From UHGV virus genome UHGV-1767510: DNA of 18,381 nucleotides; one strand, given 5' to 3'. Under the pieces are notes generated by a model. The model was given only the letters and a program-made list of their open reading frames with translations, was not told where the DNA came from and made no database searches. How positions within the stretch are numbered: the stretch's first letter is position 1; the number at the start of each line of letters is the position of its first letter. The position numbers were made by a program, and so were the translations under genes. Origin of the DNA: a virus. Below are positions 1,547-18,381 of the stretch, in pieces.

Positions 1547-1740
1547 TTCTTCCCACTCCGCAACATCGCATTCAGATATTTGTTTTGATTCACTGATGGA
1601 AAAGAATTTCTCTTAAGCAATTCCTCTCTCGATGGCATTGGCTTTACGCGTTGGCGAATAATCATTTCTGCCGGAAGAATGCCGGGATTGTATGCAAGTC
1701 CTCTCATGGTAAATTCCTCAGTCATTACTGATAGCGCCAT
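1543..1740 (-). CDS. Small hypothetical protein (65 aa)
   Basis: Short ORF translationally coupled to neighbours on the same strand; weak support. Confidence 0.3.
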
Positions 1741-2014
1741 AGCGTGAGCGGTAATTACGCAGGCGCGGGTCGATATATTCAGGGAATTTGTCTATTGTCG
1801 CTTTTCGCAACGGTCTCATTGCTGTTTCGTTTGTTCGGTCCTTCTCCTGTTTTAGCGCGAGTTGTATATCGCGTCGGTACATCCGTTCTGCTTTTGTTTC
1901 TGGTGTCAGAGCAAGAAACGCGTCGAAATTGTTTTTGATATTTTCCAGCACCTCCGCCTTGGAGCTACCGGAGCAATTGCGCGGGTCATCCGCACCATAC
2001 AGAGGCGCTGGCAT
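1718..2014 (-). CDS. Hypothetical phage protein (98 aa)
   Basis: ORF immediately downstream (leftward) of the SSB-like gene, same strand. Confidence 0.4.
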
Positions 2015-2037
2015 AATGGGAGCCTTATTTTCAATAA

Positions 2038-2625
2038 TCAGAAAGGAGGGTAATCGTTCTGGCTGTAACCATAATCATCTGCATGATTATGGCTTACGTT
2101 TTTAGAGCGATTGTCTTTATCTTTGAGGCTGGCAACCATGTTGGCGATAGTTTCTGGTTGCTTGCCTTCCGCCTTTTCTTTAAGGGTTTGACCTGTTTGT
2201 GCAATAAACGGGATGCGTATTTCCATCTGGTAGCTGTCTGCGCCAGTCTTTTTGTTTGTGGTTAATACTTTCTGGAGCACTAACCCGATTTTCTTTCCAT
2301 GAAATTCAGGTGCAACAAATTTACTGGCGGAAACCATATGCTGCGTTAATTGTCCAATCCCAGCACACCCCATCATGGCGTGAACGACATTTGCGCCAAA
2401 TTTGTTTTCCGTTCCGTCATTTTTCTGAACACAGACGCTAAGATATTGGATTTTACGGCCGTCGTCGGATTCGCCAGAAAACTCAATAAATTTGGCTCCT
2501 TTTTCTGATTGCTTTAGTTCTGCTTCAGTAATGGTAATGATATGGGCGCCAGTTTCGTTAATAAAACCACCTTGCCCTGCGGTCAGTGCTGCTTCTTCGT
2601 TATAAGTAAAAATCACGTTGCTCAT
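2038..2625 (-). CDS. Phage ssDNA-binding-like protein (DUF669-like partner of Sak4-type ATPase)
   Basis: 195-aa ORF overlapping the upstream ATPase gene by 4 bp (ATGA). Acidic C-terminal tail ...DDYGYSQNDYPPF resembles the SSB C-terminal D-[IP]-P-F tail. Sits in the recombination module in place of lambda exo/bet. Confidence 0.55.
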   Translation of the reverse strand: MSNVIFTYNEEAALTAGQGGFINETGAHIITITEAELKQSEKGAKFIEFSGESDDGRKIQYLSVCVQKNDGTENKFGANVVHAMMGCAGIGQLTQHMVSASKFVAPEFHGKKIGLVLQKVLTTNKKTGADSYQMEIRIPFIAQTGQTLKEKAEGKQPETIANMVASLKDKDNRSKNVSHNHADDYGYSQNDYPPF

Positions 2626-3302
2626 GCGGCGTTTTCCTTAATTTGATGAACATTATTGATGCCGTAGTAATCACAAACAGTGGCATCGACGAAAGAGAGA
2701 TCGTTATCAATCTCATTGGAATCAAACATTCCCATTGGGGATTTGACAGTGTCTGCACCGTTGTTTTTCGTGGTGAAAAAGAACTGGTCATCGCGGGTAA
2801 GAGTGCGAAGAACTATAGTAAACATGCCTTCGACAGTGATTTTCTCGTCCAGCATTTTGCCGATAGTTTTCATTTTCACGCGCCCCATAGGGGTTTCTTC
2901 GGTATGTGCAAGAAAATAGACTCTCAGGTCATCAGGTGCATCCTGTGCAGCCTTAATCACCTCCCATGCGTGGCGGCCTATCTCAGTGAATTTATCAAAC
3001 GATTTTTCTTCTGAGCGGCGCATAAACTCATTGCTCATCACATACTGGAAGTCATCAACAATAACGATTCTTTTCCCGTATTCGTGAGCACGCTTAATTA
3101 CGGCAACTATTACGTCCCATTTGTCAGTGGTAACTACGGTTCCTTTTTTTGCTCTGGCATCCCATGCCAGCCAGTCTTTTGATTTAAATGGAAGCGGCTT
3201 GCCTATTGGTTTTATAAGTATTGCTTCCTCTGGATTGATATTTCTCATGCTGGTTGATTTTCCGGTGCCAGATTCACCGAGTATTAATGTCGCAGTTCCC
3301 AT
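2622..3302 (-). CDS. Sak4-like RecA-core ATPase (phage single-strand annealing / recombination ATPase)
   Basis: 226 aa. N-terminal Walker A 'LILGESGTGKST' and Walker B-like 'RIVIVDDF'. Size and pairing with an SSB-like gene fit Sak4/AAA_24-type phage recombinases. Confidence 0.55.
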   Translation of the reverse strand: MGTATLILGESGTGKSTSMRNINPEEAILIKPIGKPLPFKSKDWLAWDARAKKGTVVTTDKWDVIVAVIKRAHEYGKRIVIVDDFQYVMSNEFMRRSEEKSFDKFTEIGRHAWEVIKAAQDAPDDLRVYFLAHTEETPMGRVKMKTIGKMLDEKITVEGMFTIVLRTLTRDDQFFFTTKNNGADTVKSPMGMFDSNEIDNDLSFVDATVCDYYGINNVHQIKENAA

Positions 3303-3609: not shown

Positions 3610-3742
3610 TCTTTGGGACTCCTGGCTGATTAAGTATGTCGATAAGGCGTTTCCATCCGTCACGTAATTTACGGGTGATTCGTTCAAGTAAAGATTCGGA
3701 AGGGCAGCCAGCAACAGGCCACCCTGCAATGGCATATTGCAT
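3602..3742 (-). CDS. cIII: CIII protein (FtsH inhibitor, stabilises CII)
   Basis: MQYAIAGWPVAGCPSESLLERITRKLRDGWKRLIDILNQPGVPKNG is essentially the lambda CIII sequence. ATG at 3740-3742 is preceded by AAGGAG; the upstream part of the 80-aa track ORF is not coding. Confidence 0.8.
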   Translation of the reverse strand: MQYAIAGWPVAGCPSESLLERITRKLRDGWKRLIDILNQPGVPKNG

Positions 3743-3802
3743 GGTGTGCTCCTTATTTATACATAACGAAAAACGCCTCGAGTGAAGCGTTATTGGTATG
3801 CA

Positions 3803-5585: not shown

Positions 5586-6518
5586 TTAAAGAACCGATTT
5601 AACAAGATGGTTTTTACGGTACAGACCTATGCGATCATTGTGAATCTCAGTAGTCTCCACTAAAAGAGAAACAATCTGTCCGACCTTGTGTTTTTTTTGT
5701 ATTAAATCTAGCATTTCAATCGGATAGGAAGCCTTTAAATGTTCACCACCAACATCAAGCTCCAGCTTCCCATATTTGGATAGAACGACCAGTTCGCCTG
5801 TAACCGTTTCAGTAATGGGAGGGGATGAAATGGTTGATGTAAGTCTACTCACCAAGTACTTAATTTTATTGGAGTCAATAGTTGCCACCTTGGTGCCATT
5901 ACTAAATGGACCGGTCCAACTTGCATCAAATGTTAAGTTGTGTTTATCGCATTCCTCTACGATTCTCTTAAGGCTTACAGTGGAATTGTATCCAATTTCA
6001 GCGACGTGATTCATGAAGTTGTTGTCGTCATCGCTTAACAACAAATCGAATATGCCTTTTACAGCCTTGCTGGGTACTGTTTCTACTAATTCTGCTATTC
6101 CTGTAGAGAAGGTGACGCCCAATTTTGTAGACCCAGGGGATAAATCAGCCAGCCTGAGGTTTAAGGAGCTTTTCACGTCGTAGGGAACTTTTTTTGAGTC
6201 CTTGCCTGAGGCAATTTTGTGTGTTGCTCTTTGTATTAGCGCTGCAAGATTTGTTGAAATAGCCCCAAGCAGCTCTAAAGGAATAGAGCCAAAGTCAACC
6301 TCAGAGCCTTTCAGCCGCAGCTCAAAAAAATCGATAAGTGGGTGCCGACTATCTTGCTTTAATTTTTCGGCCTTCAAATCGCTCAGATGAGAATCCATGG
6401 AGCGATAAAGAAGCATGTCAGCAAAGGACCTGGTTTTGTTTTGCTTCATTGCATCGACTTCTTTTTGAATGAAATCAATGCGTTTATCGCAATTTTTAAA
6501 CATTGATTTATCATTCAT
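5586..6518 (-). CDS. Unknown 310-aa protein, second gene of the rex-slot cassette (candidate effector or partner)
   Basis: Long ORF translationally coupled to the upstream gene (ATGA overlap at 6515-6518). No motif I can assign (no Walker A, HEPN, HNH or PD-(D/E)xK signatures seen by eye). Confidence 0.7.
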   Translation of the reverse strand: MNDKSMFKNCDKRIDFIQKEVDAMKQNKTRSFADMLLYRSMDSHLSDLKAEKLKQDSRHPLIDFFELRLKGSEVDFGSIPLELLGAISTNLAALIQRATHKIASGKDSKKVPYDVKSSLNLRLADLSPGSTKLGVTFSTGIAELVETVPSKAVKGIFDLLLSDDDNNFMNHVAEIGYNSTVSLKRIVEECDKHNLTFDASWTGPFSNGTKVATIDSNKIKYLVSRLTSTISSPPITETVTGELVVLSKYGKLELDVGGEHLKASYPIEMLDLIQKKHKVGQIVSLLVETTEIHNDRIGLYRKNHLVKSVL

Positions 6519-6994
6519 AAAAAAATCCTCACTAACCCTTTCGGGTTTTCACTGCGATCAAAACCAAACCAACCGCGCCAGTAGCTACGCCAGTACTCAT
6601 AATCATAGTTAGGGTCATCTAAATTCTTCATGAGTAGTAGGACATCAATTTTGTAGTTTTGTTTGATGTAGTTTCGGTCAAGCAAATTATCGACGCGGCC
6701 CCGAAGCATGACAGGTATTGAGTTTATATTGCTATAGTCACATACCAACAAAATATCAATATCATCAGGCTCTGGTTTAGACGTGGTGTATGAACCATCA
6801 ACCCATATTTCTGTAAAACAGCCATATTGAGCAGATAATTCTCGAATAGATTCGAGTAGCTGTATAAAATTACAGTATAGCATGCCTCGCCTGGATGATG
6901 AAGGAAAGCAATCGACACAATACGATTTTAATCCAGCTTCATCCATGTCATGGAACCCTGGCTCAAACAGGGGTGGGTAATTAATTTTATCCAT
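6515..6994 (-). CDS. Putative minimal nucleotidyltransferase-fold protein (159 aa), first gene of the rex-slot cassette
   Basis: Motif WVDGSYTTSKPEPDDIDILLV fits the Pol-beta superfamily NTase signature hG[GS]-x9-Dh[DE]h. RBS AAGG 6 nt before the ATG. Lies immediately downstream of cI, where lambda has rexA. Confidence 0.65.
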   Translation of the reverse strand: MDKINYPPLFEPGFHDMDEAGLKSYCVDCFPSSSRRGMLYCNFIQLLESIRELSAQYGCFTEIWVDGSYTTSKPEPDDIDILLVCDYSNINSIPVMLRGRVDNLLDRNYIKQNYKIDVLLLMKNLDDPNYDYEYWRSYWRGWFGFDRSENPKGLVRIFL

Positions 6995-9627: not shown

Positions 9628-9735
9628 ATGAAATCAAAAATCAAATCGCTACTGGTCGCTGGTTATAACCACGGCTGGTTAAGTATTTCGTTTGTCGATT
9701 TCTGGTTTAAAAATCTCAATCTGAGGGAATCATGA
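9628..9735 (+). CDS. Small hypothetical ORF (35 aa) coupled to the primase-helicase gene
   Basis: ATG at 9628 with AGGTGA upstream; ends in an ATGA overlap with the start of the 968-aa gene. MKSKIKSLLVAGYNHGWLSISFVDFWFKNLNLRES. Could equally be non-coding leader. Confidence 0.2.
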   Translation: MKSKIKSLLVAGYNHGWLSISFVDFWFKNLNLRES

Positions 9736-12638
9736 CGCCAAGTGAACTTAGCGACCTGCTTTGGGCGCAGGTTGACAGGGTGGCTCCGCACCTGTTGCCA
9801 AACGGCAAGAAAGAGGGGCATGAGTGGGTTGCCGGTAACATCAACGGTGACAAGGGAAACAGCCTTAAGGTCAACCTTAGCGGCAAGAAAAAATGGGCTG
9901 ATTTCGCCGAGGGAGACGGCGGTGACATGCTTGATTTGTGGATGGCATGTCGTGGAATTAACCTGCATCAGGCTATGCAGGAAGCGAAAGCATTTCTCGG
10001 TATCAAGGATGACGATCACCATTTCGATGCCAGACGTGAGAAAAAATTCTCCAGACCTGATCGCAAGAAAATCGCCCGCTACGTTACCAGAACAGAATCC
10101 CATCTTGAGTACCTGCAATCGCGTGGCATATCGCCAGAAATCGTAAAGCGCTACGAGGTTGTCAGCGGCAAGGTGTGGAATGGAGAGCGGGAACTGGATG
10201 CTCTGGTGATTCCGTACAAACGCGATGGTGAGTTGTTGCAGGTCAAGCGAATCAGCACTGAGCGCCCGGACGGGAAGAAAGTCATTATGGCAGAAGGTGA
10301 TTGCGAACCTTGCCTGTTCGGATGGCAGGCTCTGGACGCTGGCGTGAGGGCGGTTGTGCTTTGCGAAGGCGAAATTGATTGTATGAGCTATGCGCAATAC
10401 GGCATCTCGGCGTTATCCGTGCCGTTTGGTGGCGGGAAAGGCGCTAAGCAACAGTGGATTGAGTTTGAGTATCACAACCTCGACAGGTTTGAGGAAATAT
10501 TCATCTCGATGGACGTTGATGATGTTGGTCGTGAAGCCGCAAGGGAAATCGCAAGCCGACTCGGTGAACATCGTTGCCGTCTTGTTACTCTGCCGTACAA
10601 AGACATCAACGAATGCCTGATGAACGGTGTTACCGAGGATGAAATCTGGCAGTACATCGGCACGGCATCCTACTTCGATCCTGAAGAACTCTACAGCGCG
10701 CGAGAGTTTTACCAGGACACTATCAACGCTTTCTACGGCAAGCAGCAGTATCTGTTTAATCCACCGTGGGAATCTCTGGCAGATAAATTCCAGTTCCGTG
10801 AGGCAGAGTTGACGCTGGTCAATGGTGTGAACGGTCACGGAAAAGCCTGTCCACTTGATGAACCAATTCTGCTCGCTAATGGTGAATGGACTACTCACGG
10901 GGATGTAAAAATTGGCGATCAGGTGGCATCAGTAGACGGCAATCCGTCAACTGTCACCGGGATATTCCCGCAGGGTGTTAGAGATGTTTACCGAGTCACA
11001 TTTGAAGATGGTCGTTATGTTGATTGCGCAGGCGATCACCTATGGGAGGTCACTAGTCGTGGATTCACGAAAGGCGAGAAGCGCCGCGTGATAGACACCT
11101 TCGAGCTGAAACGGTTGAGTGAAACGAAGAGGCACAAAAATGGCGTCAGGATACCCGAAATAACTGGTGACTTTGGCGACCACTCAGAGCCATTAGCATG
11201 GGTTATCGGCTCCCTTCTCGGGGATGGTAGTCTTAGCAATGGGAGCGTGAAGTTTTCAAACGTCGAGCCATACATGATCGAGCGTATGAAGGCTGAACTG
11301 CCTGATTACAACTTTTCTGGAGATGGTAAGGACTGGCTGATATCAACGGCGCGTGGTCAGGTAAATCCACTCATGGAGACCCTGCGAGTTTATGGACTAA
11401 TGGGGTGCACAGCAAAAAACAAATTCATCCCTCGTGTGTTTTTTTCCGCAAACAAATCAACGCGTATAGGAATGCTGTGTGGTCTGCTTGAAACGGATGG
11501 TTATGTCGAGAAGGATGGAACGCTTGTTTTTTCCTCAGCAAGTGAAGAACTGCGTAATGGGGTTGTTCAACTGGTTAACTCACTCGGCGGTTCATGCCGG
11601 ACGCGAGTTAAAACTGGCGTGACATACACATACAAGGGCGATAAGCGGCATGGGATGGATTCATATGAGGCAAGGATACGACTGACAAGGGAAATCAGGG
11701 AGGCCATCCGTTCACCACGACTCAATGGCAGATTAACTGCGCATCGATTCGAGGGGTGTGGGGTATTCGTCAGGAATGTTGAAAAAATCGGCAATGCAGA
11801 ATGCTTGTGTATCATGGTCGATCACCCTCGCCACCTGTATGTAACCAGAGGATATGTGGCAACGCATAACACCGAGGTTGTCGGGCATATGGCGCTTGAG
11901 GCAATGCGTCAGGGTGTGAAGACGTGCATCGCGTCACTTGAGCTGAAGCCTGGTATTCTCCTTAAGCGCCTTACCCGTCAGGCGACGTGCTGCAAGATGC
12001 CGCCAGTGCTGGAAATTGACTCTGCATTTAAATTTTATGACGAAAGACTTTGGGTGTTTGGCCTGACCGGAACGGCGAAAGCCGACAGGCTGATCGAAAT
12101 ATTCGACTACGCTCGCCGCCGATACGGGATCCAGTTATTCATCATCGACAGCCTGATGAAATGTGGCATAGGCGACGATGACTATAACGGGCAGAAGGCG
12201 TTTGTTGACTCGATTTGCGACTTCAAAAACAAAACAAACTCCCACGTCATTCTCGTTACTCACTCGCGAAAAGGAGACAGCGAAGAAAAACCAACCGGGA
12301 AAATGGACGTAAAAGGCTCTGGAGCGATAACAGACCTGACAGACAACCTTTTCATCATCTGGCGTAACAAGGCTCGCGAGAGAGCGTTACAGAGAGTTCA
12401 GAGTGGTGAAAAGATGTCAGAGAAGGACGAACAGCTACTGGCATCTCCGGCATCTGTTTTGATGCTTGAAAAACAACGTAACGGCGAAGGTTGGGAAGGT
12501 GGTGTCCCGTTGTTCCTTGACGAGCAATCGCACCAGTTCCTGCAACTTGAATCAGGATCGCCATATAGCTACATCGCCAATATGCCGAAATCGGAATATG
12601 ACGAGGCGTGGCGACAGGAAAACGTGACGGAGTATTAA
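9732..12638 (+). CDS. Bifunctional primase-helicase (Toprim primase domain + DnaB/gp4-like helicase domain) interrupted by an intein
   Basis: 968 aa. N-terminal Toprim-like motif (VVLCEGEIDCMSY). Walker A GVNGHGK[A]-T split by the insert; Walker B-like LFIIDSL and VILVTHSRKG downstream. Occupies the slot of lambda P (helicase loader), following O. Confidence 0.85.
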   Translation: MTPSELSDLLWAQVDRVAPHLLPNGKKEGHEWVAGNINGDKGNSLKVNLSGKKKWADFAEGDGGDMLDLWMACRGINLHQAMQEAKAFLGIKDDDHHFDARREKKFSRPDRKKIARYVTRTESHLEYLQSRGISPEIVKRYEVVSGKVWNGERELDALVIPYKRDGELLQVKRISTERPDGKKVIMAEGDCEPCLFGWQALDAGVRAVVLCEGEIDCMSYAQYGISALSVPFGGGKGAKQQWIEFEYHNLDRFEEIFISMDVDDVGREAAREIASRLGEHRCRLVTLPYKDINECLMNGVTEDEIWQYIGTASYFDPEELYSAREFYQDTINAFYGKQQYLFNPPWESLADKFQFREAELTLVNGVNGHGKACPLDEPILLANGEWTTHGDVKIGDQVASVDGNPSTVTGIFPQGVRDVYRVTFEDGRYVDCAGDHLWEVTSRGFTKGEKRRVIDTFELKRLSETKRHKNGVRIPEITGDFGDHSEPLAWVIGSLLGDGSLSNGSVKFSNVEPYMIERMKAELPDYNFSGDGKDWLISTARGQVNPLMETLRVYGLMGCTAKNKFIPRVFFSANKSTRIGMLCGLLETDGYVEKDGTLVFSSASEELRNGVVQLVNSLGGSCRTRVKTGVTYTYKGDKRHGMDSYEARIRLTREIREAIRSPRLNGRLTAHRFEGCGVFVRNVEKIGNAECLCIMVDHPRHLYVTRGYVATHNTEVVGHMALEAMRQGVKTCIASLELKPGILLKRLTRQATCCKMPPVLEIDSAFKFYDERLWVFGLTGTAKADRLIEIFDYARRRYGIQLFIIDSLMKCGIGDDDYNGQKAFVDSICDFKNKTNSHVILVTHSRKGDSEEKPTGKMDVKGSGAITDLTDNLFIIWRNKARERALQRVQSGEKMSEKDEQLLASPASVLMLEKQRNGEGWEGGVPLFLDEQSHQFLQLESGSPYSYIANMPKSEYDEAWRQENVTEY
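10848..11870 (+). mobile_element. Intein with LAGLIDADG homing-endonuclease domain, inserted in the helicase P-loop
   Basis: In-frame 341-aa insert starting CPLDEPILLANGEW... and ending ...YVATHN followed by Thr (+1 nucleophile). Two LAGLIDADG-like motifs (VIGSLLGDGSL; LCGLLETDGYV). Removing it restores a P-loop. The N-terminal boundary could be one residue earlier (Ala, 10845), which would give a perfect GVNGHGKT Walker A. Confidence 0.7.
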
Positions 12639-12720
12639 ATGACAATCTACATCACTGAGCTAATAGCAGGGTTATCGTTACTAATGGTTCTTACTGTATA
12701 TATTATTAAGTATATTCTTT

Positions 12721-13332
12721 ATGCGAATAAAAAAACCAATTGATCACGATGAGCTTCTGTCAACATTATCATATGACTCAGAAACAGGAATATTTAAATG
12801 GCTAAAAACAAATTCAGTAGTAAGAGTAAAAGGTAGTATTGCTGGAGGTGTTAGTGGTGGTTATATATGCATTAGCATAAATAATGTTTTGTATTATGCG
12901 CATAGGCTTGCTTGGTTCTATGTATACAAAAAATGGCCTCCTAAGTTTATTGATCATGTAAATGGGAACAGACTTGACAATAGGATTTCAAATCTAAGAC
13001 TGGCAACAGAGGAGCAGAATGCAAGAAACATTGTAGGTAATAGGTTAAACACATCCGGTGCGATTGGAGTGTCTTGGGATAAGACAACTGGCAGGTGGAA
13101 GTCTTATGTTGGTTATAAAAATAAGACAATATCGTTAGGGTATTTCGATAGCAAAGAAGATGCAGCATTCATAGCAGCACTAGCAAGAAAGAAACTATAT
13201 GGAACTTATGCGAGTAAAGCACTTAATTGCGAGCATGAGCTTTTATCTCAATTTAATAATGATGAGGATAAACTTGCGGAATATCTTAAGGAAAAATCTA
13301 AAAGGACTCGAAAGCGTGTTAAAAAAAGATAA
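12721..13332 (+). CDS. Free-standing HNH homing endonuclease with AP2-like DNA-binding domain
   Basis: HNH motif ...YYAHRLAWFYVYKKWPPKFIDHVNGNRLDNRISNLRLATEEQNARN, plus AP2-like GVSWDKTTGRWKSYVGYKNKTISLGYFDSKEDAA. The gene and its flanks are visibly AT-rich compared with neighbours (not computed). Confidence 0.8.
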   Translation: MRIKKPIDHDELLSTLSYDSETGIFKWLKTNSVVRVKGSIAGGVSGGYICISINNVLYYAHRLAWFYVYKKWPPKFIDHVNGNRLDNRISNLRLATEEQNARNIVGNRLNTSGAIGVSWDKTTGRWKSYVGYKNKTISLGYFDSKEDAAFIAALARKKLYGTYASKALNCEHELLSQFNNDEDKLAEYLKEKSKRTRKRVKKR

Positions 13333-16734: not shown

Positions 16735-17383
16735 TGGCAGCAAATACCGAAATATTTGGGTAGTTGGCGATCTGCACGGATGCTACACGAACCTGATGAA
16801 AAAACTGGAGACGATAGGATTCGACACCAAAAAAGACCTGCTTATCTCGGTTGGCGATTTGGTCGATCGCGGTACAGAGAACGTCGAATGCCTGGAATTA
16901 ATCACATTCCCCTGGTTCAGAGCTGTACGTGGAAACCATGAGCAAATGATGATTGATGGCTTATCAGAGCGCGGAAACGTCAATCACTGGATGCTTAATG
17001 GCGGTGGCTGGTTCTTTAATCTCGATTACGACAAAGAAATTCTGGCTAAAGCTCTTGCCCATAAAGCAGATGAACTTCCGTTAATCATCGAACTGGTGAG
17101 CAAAGATAAAAAATATGTCATCTGCCACGCCGATTATCCTTGTGACGAATACGAGTTTGGAAAGCCAGTTGATCATCAGCAGGTAATCTGGAACCGAGAA
17201 CGAATCAGCAACTCACAAGACGGGATCGTGAAAGAAATTAAAGGCGCGGACACGTTCATCTTTGGTCATACGCCAGCAGTGAAACCGCTCAAATTTGCCA
17301 ACCAGATGTATATCGATACCGGCGCAGTGTTCTGCGGAAAGCTCACATTGATTCAGGTACAGGGAGAAGGCGCGTGGGCATAA
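16712..17383 (+). CDS. ninI: Serine/threonine protein phosphatase (lambda PPase / NinI family)
   Basis: Metallophosphatase motifs GDLHG, GDLVDRG and GNHE. Start [25 protein letters not shown]... at 16712, inside the longer track ORF. Confidence 0.85.
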
Positions 17384-17892
17384 GAGAACTAAACCTCACC
17401 AAAGAACAGCATGAGTGGCTGAATGGCTGGCTTGAACTGTGGGGCGCATGGGTTTATTCAGGTCGTCTGGAAAAGCGCATGAGCAGCGTAATAGCGAAGT
17501 TCATGGAGAGCGTAGAGCCGGGAAGAGTTATGACAAGGCCAATGTGTAATGATGATGATGGAATGTTGATTTCTCAGGTCGTCGATTCCGTCATGTACAT
17601 TGACAAGAAAGCCTTTGGCATCCTCCTCAGCTACTACGCTCATGGTTCATCTAAGCGAGCAATTGCATCCTACTATCACGCGACTGCAAAGCCACGCAAG
17701 ATGTGTGGACGTGGTGGCGAGGGATGGAGAAAACCTTCAATGGCAACCTGTAGAAACGAAATTGACGACATCCTGAAAGCGTCGTTATTTGTTTTGTACC
17801 AGCCAATGCAAAATGCTTTCAAAATGCGTAAACGTGTTGAGAAAGTTAAGCATGTTGCTGTTAAAAGCCTTGACATGCAATTATCTATTTAG
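17374..17892 (+). CDS. Q: Late-gene antiterminator Q-like protein (non-lambda Q type)
   Basis: 172 aa. GTG start with AGGGAGAAGG RBS. Positioned after ninI and directly upstream of a pR'-like promoter, terminator and holin; contains Cys/His residues. The call rests on position, not on recognised sequence identity. Confidence 0.5.
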
Positions 17893-17953
17893 CCATAATT
17901 AGAAGGTAAGCTGCCGTTAGTGACTCTTAAGTTGCAACGGTGGCTTTTTTTAT
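17870..17953 (+). promoter_or_regulatory. pR'-like late promoter with downstream tR'-like terminator (Q action site)
   Basis: -35 TTGACA (17870-17875) and -10-like CATAAT (17894-17899), then a hairpin (about 17913-17944) and a 9-T run (17945-17953). Confidence 0.4.
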
Positions 17954-17955
17954 TT

Positions 17956-18030
17956 GGGTCAGTCGTATAAAGGTCATTACGGAAGGCTGTTAACCTTCTT
18001 ATCGTGGTTCGAGTCCACGCTGTCCCGCCA
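17956..18030 (+). tRNA. tRNA-like gene, anticodon GUU (Asn) by manual folding; possibly degenerate
   Basis: Manual cloverleaf: acceptor gggtcag/ctgtccc with one T-T mismatch, D-arm with GG, perfect anticodon stem gaagg/ccttc with loop CTGTTAA, T-arm cgtgg-TTCGAGT-ccacg, discriminator G and encoded CCA. Confidence 0.45.
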
Positions 18031-18035
18031 AACAT

Positions 18036-18111
18036 GCTGGTTTAGCTCCAATGGTAGAGCAGTCGCCTTGTAAGCGAATGGGTAGCGGTTCAAGTCCGTT
18101 AACCAGCACCA
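18036..18111 (+). tRNA. tRNA gene, anticodon UGU (Thr) by manual folding
   Basis: Manual cloverleaf: perfect 7-bp acceptor gctggtt/aaccagc, D-arm gctc-CAATGGTA-gagc, anticodon loop CTTGTAA (stem with one G-A mismatch), T-arm agcgg-TTCAAGT-ccgtt, discriminator A and encoded CCA. Confidence 0.7.
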
Positions 18112-18227
18112 TAACTGAGCCGTAGCCACTGGCTATCCTGAACTCATCAGTGATAGTTACGCTGCGGCCTTCTTTCCCCCTTCCCAATATAAGAACTACG
18201 CAATCCGTTACTGGCGGAGGCGTTGCT

Positions 18228-18381
18228 ATGAAATCAATGGACAAAATCTCAACTGGCATTGCCTACGGAACATCCGCTGGTAGTGCGGGATACTGGTTTT
18301 TGCAGTGGTTGGATCAGGTCAGTCCATCACAGTGGGCTGCGATTGGTGTACTGGGGAGTCTGGTTCTGGGCTTCCTGACAT
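18228..18381 (+). CDS. S: Class II holin / pinholin (phage 21 S21 type), 5' part (runs off right edge)
   Basis: [51 protein letters not shown]... matches the phage 21 S21 pinholin N-terminus, including the dual-start MKSM motif. Confidence 0.85.

Follow-up and report, generated by a model that had tools for sequence, protein, structure and literature searches.

A tRNA-Asn/tRNA-Thr cassette at the start of a lambdoid late operon and its probable role in evading tRNA nucleases

Introduction

In the late region of a lambdoid prophage, two tRNA-like genes stand between the late antiterminator gene and the pinholin gene. This locus raises the question of why a temperate phage keeps tRNA genes at such a place, and whether the first of them, which has a mismatch in its acceptor stem, is still a working gene. 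We analyzed the whole stretch of 18,381 nucleotides in which the locus lies (hereafter, the window). It is probable, in our judgment, that these are two functional phage tRNA genes which make up the known Asn/Thr cassette. The literature describes the Thr tRNA as nuclease-resistant, and the Asn tRNA presumably plays the same role.

Results

Two tRNA genes follow the late leader terminator

The features of the locus are the following:

17374..17892, + strand: Q-family late antiterminator gene, 172 aa, phage 21/Sf6 type (Pfam Phage_antitermQ, E 1.1e-25; 85% identity to phage 21 Q)
17870..17899, + strand: pR' late promoter, TTGACA and CATAAT with an 18-nt spacer (promoter scan, 11 of 12 matches)
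17908..17955, + strand: hairpin and T-run of the late leader, tR', the 'aRNA' of AJ237660 (fold energy; identity to the phage 21 terminator)
17956..18030, + strand: tRNA-Asn(GUU), 72 nt plus encoded CCA (ARAGORN, Rfam, covariation, identity to CPT_21_64)
18031..18035, + strand: 5-nt spacer AAACA between the tRNA genes, third base C or T among relatives (sequence)
18036..18111, + strand: tRNA-Thr(UGU), 73 nt plus encoded CCA (ARAGORN, Rfam, identity to CPT_21_65 and HK446)
18119..18168, + strand: stable hairpin 3' of tRNA-Thr (-27.7 kcal/mol, z -6.0; more stable than all 200 shuffles)
18228..18381, + strand: 5' part of an S21-type pinholin/antiholin gene, which runs off the end of the window

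Across the 18.4-kb window, ARAGORN called two tRNA genes and no more, Asn (gtt) and Thr (tgt), both on the + strand. The first-pass annotation had assigned the anticodons GUU and UGU by hand, and both ARAGORN, the kind of tool that it had named as a check, and Rfam agree with it. Against the Rfam family RF00005, whose gathering score is 29, tRNA-Asn scores 55.3 bits (E 9.7e-10) and tRNA-Thr 61.5 bits (E 2e-11). The discriminator base and CCA are encoded in both genes (G-CCA for Asn, A-CCA for Thr).

The order of the neighbors was also as first described, with the tRNA genes between tR' and the pinholin gene. Homology to phage 21 places the transcription start of pR' at about 17906; the records of phage 21 and Sf6 have annotations at the corresponding positions for pR', the Q-binding element and the start site. 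The tR' hairpin (-20.2 kcal/mol, z -4.6) was more stable than all 200 shuffles; its sequence is that of the late terminator of phage 21, whose annotation cites PMID 1704887. The Asn gene starts at the base directly after the T-run. The part of the pinholin gene inside the window encodes residues 1-51 of the phage 21 S21-71 protein.

The cassette is known and widespread

The locus is not new: annotations of it exist for phage 21, Sf6, BTP1, SfI and hundreds of E. coli genomes. A 186-bp block (17940-18125) runs from the last part of tR' across the two tRNA genes to 14 nt past them. Its identity is 100% with phage 21, BTP1, HK446, S107 and others, and 99.5% with Sf6. This block was matched in 61 phage records, and most of the annotated ones label tRNA-Asn and tRNA-Thr. 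It was also present in 369 of 5426 complete E. coli genomes; among the matches listed, RefSeq annotates both genes in nearly all copies. The cassette occurs in more than 120 viral contigs. A scan of one genome per species gave four exact core matches: Escherichia sp., E. albertii and gut MAG contigs labelled Segatella and Collinsella, the latter two probably mis-binned. Such a scan says little on host range, for which the phage and E. coli collections are more informative.

In the phage 21 record OL657228.1, pR', the Q-binding element, the terminator, CPT_21_64 (Asn) and CPT_21_65 (Thr) follow one another in this order, and the announcement of the phage 21 genome gives a count of 2 tRNA genes. 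The Sf6 record itself labels the locus 'similar to phage 21'. The SfI genome paper of 2013 described the cassette and called the significance of its Asn gene 'not clear' (PMC3636060). In the HK446 record, both tRNA genes are present without annotation. As a discovery, the locus is thus of small weight, since the genes are annotated and a paper of 2025 already describes the part that the Thr tRNA plays against P2 OLD. For researchers of OLD, it matters that HK446 has both tRNA genes and not one.

The tRNA-Thr has an abnormal anticodon stem and lacks the nuclease motifs

The second tRNA had been taken for a canonical one, but it is not fully so. The anticodon stem, GUCGC/GCGAA, has a G27·A43 mismatch, the pair U28-A42 and G39. 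C14 stands in place of the near-universal A14, and an A15/U48 Levitt pair replaces G15/C48. The remaining conserved tertiary nucleotides are present, so that A14 is the only exception besides the A15/U48 swap. The identity set of E. coli ThrRS consists of G1-C72, C2-G71, G35 and U36, and the window tRNA carries it in the acceptor stem GCUGGUU.../...AACCAGC and the anticodon UGU. Five instances of the gene have a compensatory change from G5-C68 to U5-A68.

The same sequence has been studied as tRNA-Thr21. Govande et al. (NAR 2025, PMC12445682) showed that tRNA-Thr21, which has exactly the sequence of the window, protects against P2 OLD. This nuclease cuts at a paired CNG motif at positions 28-30 and 40-42; purified OLD without ATP does not cut tRNA-Thr21, and cleavage site 1 is almost completely resistant (PMC12445682). 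The host target tRNA-ThrU is the only UGU tRNA and the only ACA decoder of the host (PMC12445682), and it is of low abundance. E. coli tRNA-ThrU itself gives little or no protection from P2 OLD (PMC12445682). According to a 2026 preprint, expression of E. coli tRNA-ThrU is without effect, whereas phage Thr(UGU) tRNAs rescue; the HK446 tRNA-Thr(UGU) restores the plating of the OLD-sensitive phages HK97, HK542 and Bas34, and a viral tRNA-Thr alone rescues neither lambda itself nor recB-deficient cells (bioRxiv 10.64898/2026.07.10.737580). The difference between the host and phage tRNAs indicates that it is the sequence that matters and not the dose. The published rescue by plasmid-expressed tRNA-Thr21 and by the HK446 tRNA implies that the Thr tRNA works. 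A second nuclease shares this prime target of OLD: Belukhina et al. (2025) showed that tRNA-Thr(UGU) is also a prime target of AriB of the PARIS system, which cuts at 40|41 in U36AAUC|A41.

We compared the anticodon stems at these positions. The host thrU stem (ACUGA/UCAGU) has CNG at 28-30 and 40-42 and UAAU at 36-39. In the window tRNA-Thr, there is no CNG motif (C28U/G42A), positions 36-39 read UAAG and positions 36-41 UAAGCG; the validated Thr evader of phage T5 has UAAGCA at 36-41. The function of the Thr tRNA is owed to its abnormal anticodon stem. Its resistance comes from the shortening of this stem by G27·A43 together with the loss of the paired CNG motif. The tRNA is a resistant replacement for the host tRNA-ThrU, which P2 OLD and PARIS AriB destroy during abortive infection. 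The earlier suggestion that prophage tRNAs of the late region answer tRNA-cutting defenses thus held for Thr and P2 OLD (PMC12445682 and the preprint). The part of it that named anticodon nucleases did not, since the relevant enzymes are Toprim nucleases that cut the anticodon stem, unlike the classical nucleases of the anticodon loop.

The tRNA-Asn gene is a constant member of the cassette and not a relic

The question was then whether the Asn gene is intact. The Rfam alignment has U·U at acceptor position 4:69 and a D-stem of three pairs (G10-C25, U11-A24, A12-U23) followed by a U13·U22 mismatch, and thus bears out the T-T mismatch and the weak D-stem noted before. The anticodon arm described as perfect is so, with five pairs (GAAGG/CCUUC). 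U8, A14, G18-G19, A21, U33, A37, the T-loop UUCRANU, G73 and CCA are all intact. E. coli AsnRS recognizes the anticodon G34-U35-U36 and the discriminator G73. The window tRNA has GUU at 34-36 and G73 ahead of CCA.

It had been supposed that the Asn gene may be decaying. In this case it would be a non-functional passenger, kept because it lies between tR' and a useful Thr gene. The U4·U69 mismatch and the presence of just three Watson-Crick pairs in the D-stem speak for this, and so do the unbiased Asn codons. Position 4:69 also holds about 5 of the roughly 18 variant instances of the gene (U·C three times, U·G once and G·U once). Some prophage copies carry damaging changes (T54C; G1T with C32A), and PGAP/RefSeq leaves these copies unannotated. 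The damaged copies are ordinary cryptic-prophage decay and no property of the gene. The conservation of the gene, its covariation and its constant place in the cassette contradict decay, and we rejected the pseudogene as a candidate. The gene was identical in 109 of 129 sampled instances; these had been selected for identity over the central 39 nt, and the count refers to the other 36 nt. The Rfam score of 55 bits with all conserved nucleotides intact also argues against a passenger.

Comparison with tRNA-Asn genes of other phages was more informative for the D-arm. The D-arm, including U13·U22, is invariant in the tRNA-Asn genes of Mosigvirus, Gualtarvirus and jumbo Erwinia phages, while the stems covary. 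Nucleotides 8-27 read UCGUAUAAAGGUYAUUACGG, and the C/U of the D-loop is the sole variable base across the phage relatives. Thus, the 'weak' D-arm is a lineage signature and not damage. Across four sequences, 94% of the stem cells are paired, compared to 36-48% in controls in which the 3' partners were slid, and 10 of the 21 pairs change on both sides. Among 500 shuffles, none matched four of the five measures, and one matched the fifth, further pair types. In the relatives, position 4:69 is U·G twice and C-G once, so the U·U of the window is one substitution away from a wobble pair. It might nevertheless lower the stability or charging of the Asn tRNA.

The surroundings of the gene point in the same direction. 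From the leader through the Asn gene and ~25 nt into the Thr gene, the window, Sf6, ST64T and JLK-2012 do not differ; the homology breaks inside the second gene. In ST64T and phage L, the second slot holds a different tRNA-like gene with an Rfam score of 42 bits. ARAGORN makes no call on it, and the authors of the phage L paper call it Leu-UAA. In JLK-2012 and E. albertii, the second slot is a chimera, thrU-like from the anticodon arm onward and with mismatches at 27:43 and 28:42, and a tRNA-Gly(UCC) gene follows. The Asn gene is 100% conserved even where the neighboring slot was replaced; it is the constant member of the cassette, and the second slot varies. That the gene is a decaying passenger is very unlikely in our judgment. 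The odd Asn tRNA is therefore a conserved tRNA of a phage lineage and not a relic.

The tRNA-Asn may be a second nuclease-resistant replacement

Both nucleases also attack host tRNA-Asn(GUU). OLD cuts it more slowly than ThrU; in the 2026 preprint, Asn is absent from the five preferred targets of OLD (bioRxiv 10.64898/2026.07.10.737580). The targets of AriB are Lys(UUU), Thr(UGU) and Asn(GUU), which it cleaves at 40|41 within U36AAUC; host tRNA-Asn(GUU) is a secondary target of biological relevance (Belukhina et al. 2025). Full rescue from PARIS needs the Lys, Thr and Asn variants of T5 together.

The host asnT stem (GCGGA/UCCGU) has CGG at 28-30, CCG at 40-42 and UAAUCC at 36-41. The window tRNA-Asn has no CNG motif; it reads UAAC at 36-39 and UAACCU at 36-41. 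U39 is lost in the Asn and Thr tRNAs of the window and in all three validated T5 evaders, and the CNG pair is absent from all 7 phage tRNA-Asn genes compared. Since OLD and AriB cut host tRNA-Asn and the phage tRNA is free of both motifs, we think, judging from the sequences, that the Asn gene encodes a second nuclease-resistant replacement, here for host tRNA-Asn(GUU). Such a role would also account for the joint recurrence of Asn(GUU) and Thr(UGU), in this order, in unrelated coliphages. The CNG pair is missing from most unrelated stems, and the phage tRNA is identical to asnT at only 48 of 76 positions; loss of the motif alone is therefore weak evidence. Because host tRNA-Asn(GUU) is a target of OLD and AriB, the Asn gene gains a concrete hypothesis that is cheap to test. 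The cassette has no Lys(UUU) tRNA, the main target of AriB, and so would not neutralize PARIS by itself.

Probable expression from pR' past tR'

It is important when in infection the tRNAs appear. The promoter scan found no promoter between tR' and the tRNA genes, and an independent tRNA promoter was ruled out for this reason. Given this and the start of the Asn gene right after the T-run, transcription apparently must come from pR' past tR'. According to PMC7547250, pR' is constitutive in lambdoid lysogens, and its transcripts are terminated just downstream. The tRNA genes would be reached by Q-modified polymerase, which would read through tR', or by low-level readthrough of tR', and host tRNA-processing enzymes would excise the tRNAs from the late transcript. 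Readthrough or Q antitermination decides whether the tRNAs come early enough against a nuclease that is triggered early. If they are made only late, they may follow the stop of translation by an early-acting nuclease, which would count against the nuclease-evasion explanation. The authors of the phage L paper, who discuss the same locus, called the way in which these tRNAs are expressed unknown.

The hairpin at 18119-18168 sits inside a 62-nt block (18112-18173) that moves with the cassette: of 128 cassette instances, 111 contain this block, ahead of differing lysis cassettes. The hairpin has no U-run and is thus not a terminator. It could be a processing element or an element stabilizing the 5' end, and its substitutions preserve pairs only in part. 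We also considered the 62 nt after tRNA-Thr as the remnant of a third tRNA, the tRNA-Gly of JLK-2012, and rejected this, as 446 of 1000 shuffles reach the alignment score and there is no Rfam hit.

Discussion

Other explanations of the cassette

The two genes of the cassette differ with respect to codon usage. We computed codon usage on phage 21, as at most 59% of the window has a counterpart in any one complete E. coli genome or phage record. ACA is enriched about 1.8-fold, with 13.0 per 1000 codons in the late genes of phage 21 and 14.0 in the early ones compared to 7.1 in the host (PMC3636060); in SfI, it is 17.3 against 7.1 in S. flexneri (PMC3636060). Its only host decoder, as noted above, is a tRNA of low abundance. 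For Asn there is no such bias: AAC makes up 53% of the Asn codons of phage 21, its major capsid gene has 2 AAC and 9 AAT, and SfI has no Asn codon bias either (PMC3636060), although the phage L paper reports that 24 of the 25 Asn codons of its capsid gene are AAC. Thus, matching the anticodons to the late genes, as the first-pass annotation had proposed, succeeded for Thr and failed for Asn, and we rejected the idea that the Asn gene is kept for codon supplementation. That both tRNAs merely raise the supply of decoders, with no tie to defense, seems unlikely to us. It does not explain why host ThrU rescues little or not at all while the phage Thr tRNA does, nor the specific changes of the anticodon stem. 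Because ACA is enriched in phage genes, extra ACA decoding is a likely secondary benefit.

Two further explanations concern the position of the cassette. It lies directly after tR', at the extreme 5' end of a transcript of more than 20 kb, and the conserved, very stable hairpin on its 3' side, ahead of different lysis genes, could shield a new 5' end. It is possible to imagine from this that the tRNA folds are mainly RNase P/RNase E signals at which the mRNA of the lysis and structural genes is cut away from the pR' leader, a function compatible with nuclease evasion. We consider it rather improbable that this is what the cassette is for: lambda and P22 have no tRNA at this position (according to the phage L paper, P22 is devoid of tRNA genes), processing alone requires neither conserved anticodons nor synthetase identity elements, and the pairs of the hairpin are kept only in part. 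The 2026 preprint suggests for the HK446 tRNA that it compensates for a host tRNA gene disrupted by integration. Many such phages do integrate into tRNA genes, and SfI integrates into thrW. However, the cassette is in the late operon and not at the attachment site, and the integration site of phage 21 is icd. When P22-like phages integrate, they restore thrW, which is Thr(CGU) and not UGU, and no known att site of these phages needs an Asn tRNA. Neither the position of the cassette nor its anticodons fit, we saw no lysogen relying on the prophage copy for its sole supply of Thr(UGU) or Asn(GUU), and we rejected this explanation, to which we give almost no credence.

A possible two-tRNA counter-defense module

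Replacement of host tRNAs cut by nucleases is therefore the explanation that we prefer for both genes. A broader proposal, which we make only tentatively and hold to be somewhat less likely than its opposite, is that the Asn-Thr pair is a two-tRNA counter-defense module of temperate lambdoid and P1-like phages. It would act against tRNases of the P2 OLD/P4 PARIS class, and from its place behind the always-active pR' it would be delivered by readthrough or by Q antitermination. If this is true, the recurrence of Asn followed by Thr in unrelated coliphages reflects a shared list of nuclease targets and not codon usage.

Comparison with known systems

The cassette stands at the very start of the late operon in phage 21, Sf6, BTP1, SfI, HK446 and many prophages of E. 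coli, Shigella and Salmonella. In the five named phages, its position is that of the window, after pR'/tR' and before the lysis genes. Outside the block, the window prophage is a different mosaic, as the 59% limit on its coverage by any complete E. coli genome or phage record indicates; its Q is 85% identical to Q21, and its Q-binding region is of the Sf6 type. Stx phages of the 933W type presumably resemble the window in arrangement, as lambdoid phages with tRNA genes (ileZ-argN-argO) between Q/pR' and the late and lysis genes. Their tRNAs have anticodons for rare Ile and Arg codons and are usually explained by codon supplementation.

Several OLD-resistant tRNA-Thr(UGU) have been described, namely tRNA-Thr21, tRNA-Thr6 and those of T4, Bas32 and HK446, and the window tRNA-Thr is the tRNA-Thr21/HK446 sequence itself. 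The published tests of tRNA-Thr21 and the HK446 tRNA used plasmid expression, whereas the natural place of the window gene is behind tR'. The PARIS-evading tRNAs of T5 share two of their three anticodons with the window, and U39 is lost in both systems. The sequences are unrelated, and the window has no Lys tRNA. The anticodon stem of T5 Asn contains mismatches, while that of the window Asn has five perfect pairs. T5 itself is virulent, and its ~25 tRNA genes are driven by promoters of their own.

Diverged phage relatives of the window tRNA-Asn occur in T4-like and jumbo phages. In Mosigvirus, Gualtarvirus and jumbo Erwinia/Serratia phages, nucleotides 8-27 are the same, including the GUAU/UUAC D-stem, except for C20 of the window, which is U there. 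The variable loop is also the same, the T-loop is one base off in one relative, and the overall identity is 82%. The acceptor, anticodon and T stems differ from the window by compensatory changes, and these phages have U·G or C-G at 4:69, against U·U in the window. The same two anticodons in the same order are found in unrelated coliphages, in trnA (Asn)-trnT (Thr) of the P1 family, in Cyrano and in the Asn-Ser-Thr-Pro array of N4. The window Thr is identical to the N4-type Thr at 67 of 76 positions, and the P1/N4 Asn gene belongs to another lineage (GAUGGUG...) and lies at a different genomic position. The P1-type Thr keeps both CNG motifs, whereas the window Thr has none.

Early region and possible exposure to P2 OLD

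The window also contains the following features outside the tRNA region:

1718-2014, minus strand: Abc2 anti-RecBCD protein
2038-2625, minus strand: SSB-like protein
2622-3302, minus strand: Sak4-like annealing protein
1718-3302, minus strand: recombination module formed by these three genes
3697-3755, minus strand: lambda cIII thermoregulator RNA element, full-length match (Rfam RF01804, 88.5 bits)
5586-6994, minus strand: two ORFs of 310 aa and 159 aa, the latter with DUF6932, with gene N on one side and the cI-like repressor on the other
9732-13332, plus strand: primase/helicase ORF of 968 aa and, downstream of it in the replication module, a gene for a free-standing HNH endonuclease
12721-13332, plus strand: the HNH endonuclease gene within this module

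The Sak4-like, SSB-like and Abc2 genes differ from the recombination genes of lambda, exo-bet-gam. P2 OLD, the nuclease that cuts host tRNA-ThrU, is triggered by RecBCD inhibitors, for example Gam (bioRxiv 10.64898/2026.07.10.737580). Since the window encodes the anti-RecBCD protein Abc2, the prophage may be exposed to P2 OLD, the defence countered by its own tRNA-Thr. The two ORFs at 5586-6994 are situated where lambda has rexAB, and they match PDC-M63, a candidate defence system in PADLOC (M63B, E 7.5e-45; M63A, E 1.8e-41).

The tRNA cassette and its variants

Phage HK446 (NC_019714.1; locus L140, 1211-1366) carries both tRNA-Asn and tRNA-Thr, each 100% identical to that of the window, and the pair sits behind a lambda-type Q/pR'. 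No tRNA genes are annotated in the HK446 record, and a single HK446 tRNA is mentioned in the 2026 OLD preprint (bioRxiv 10.64898/2026.07.10.737580).

The slot after tRNA-Asn is filled differently in these loci:

L005 1281-1434 (JLK-2012), also L017 (E. albertii): second-slot variant, phage/thrU-like composite

This gene retains the phage 5' part, and its sequence from the anticodon arm on is similar to that of E. coli thrU. Mismatches at 27:43 and 28:42 leave an anticodon stem of three pairs, and one CNG motif is gone. The gene scores 49 bits with Rfam, and ARAGORN made no call for it. It may be another OLD-resistant design and not a broken gene. It is followed by a tRNA-Gly(UCC) gene; Gly(UCC) is among the OLD targets named in the same preprint (bioRxiv 10.64898/2026.07.10.737580).

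Prophage-borne Asn genes in E. coli chromosomes (L141, L142) in rare cases carry T54C, or G1T together with C32A. These copies are still called by ARAGORN, are unannotated in RefSeq, and represent ordinary decay within some cryptic prophages. The core of the Asn gene was also matched exactly on 3.9- and 6.9-kb MAG contigs labelled Segatella copri and Collinsella sp. (L016, L018; genome_contigs), which are most likely mis-binned enterobacterial phage DNA.

A hairpin directly downstream of tRNA-Thr

18112-18173, plus strand: 62-nt block directly 3' of tRNA-Thr, with a hairpin at 18119-18168

Of 128 instances of the tRNA cassette, 111 have this block with them, upstream of differing lysis cassettes. 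Its hairpin has a fold energy of -27.7 kcal/mol (z -6.0; none of 200 shuffles was as stable) and lacks a U-run. Some substitutions in it preserve pairing by wobble and some are disruptive. The hairpin could be a processing element of the late mRNA or could protect its 5' end. We rejected the block as a tRNA-Gly remnant.

Comparison with unrelated coliphages

The arrangement of Asn(GUU) followed by Thr(UGU) recurs in unrelated coliphages (loci L006, L007, L008; P1, NC_005856.1). It forms the trnA-trnT tandem of P1, P7, D6 and SJ46, while the order is Asn-Thr-Ser in Cyrano and Asn-Ser-Thr-Pro in N4-like phages. The Asn gene of P1-type, Cyrano and N4-like phages belongs to a lineage other than that of the window.
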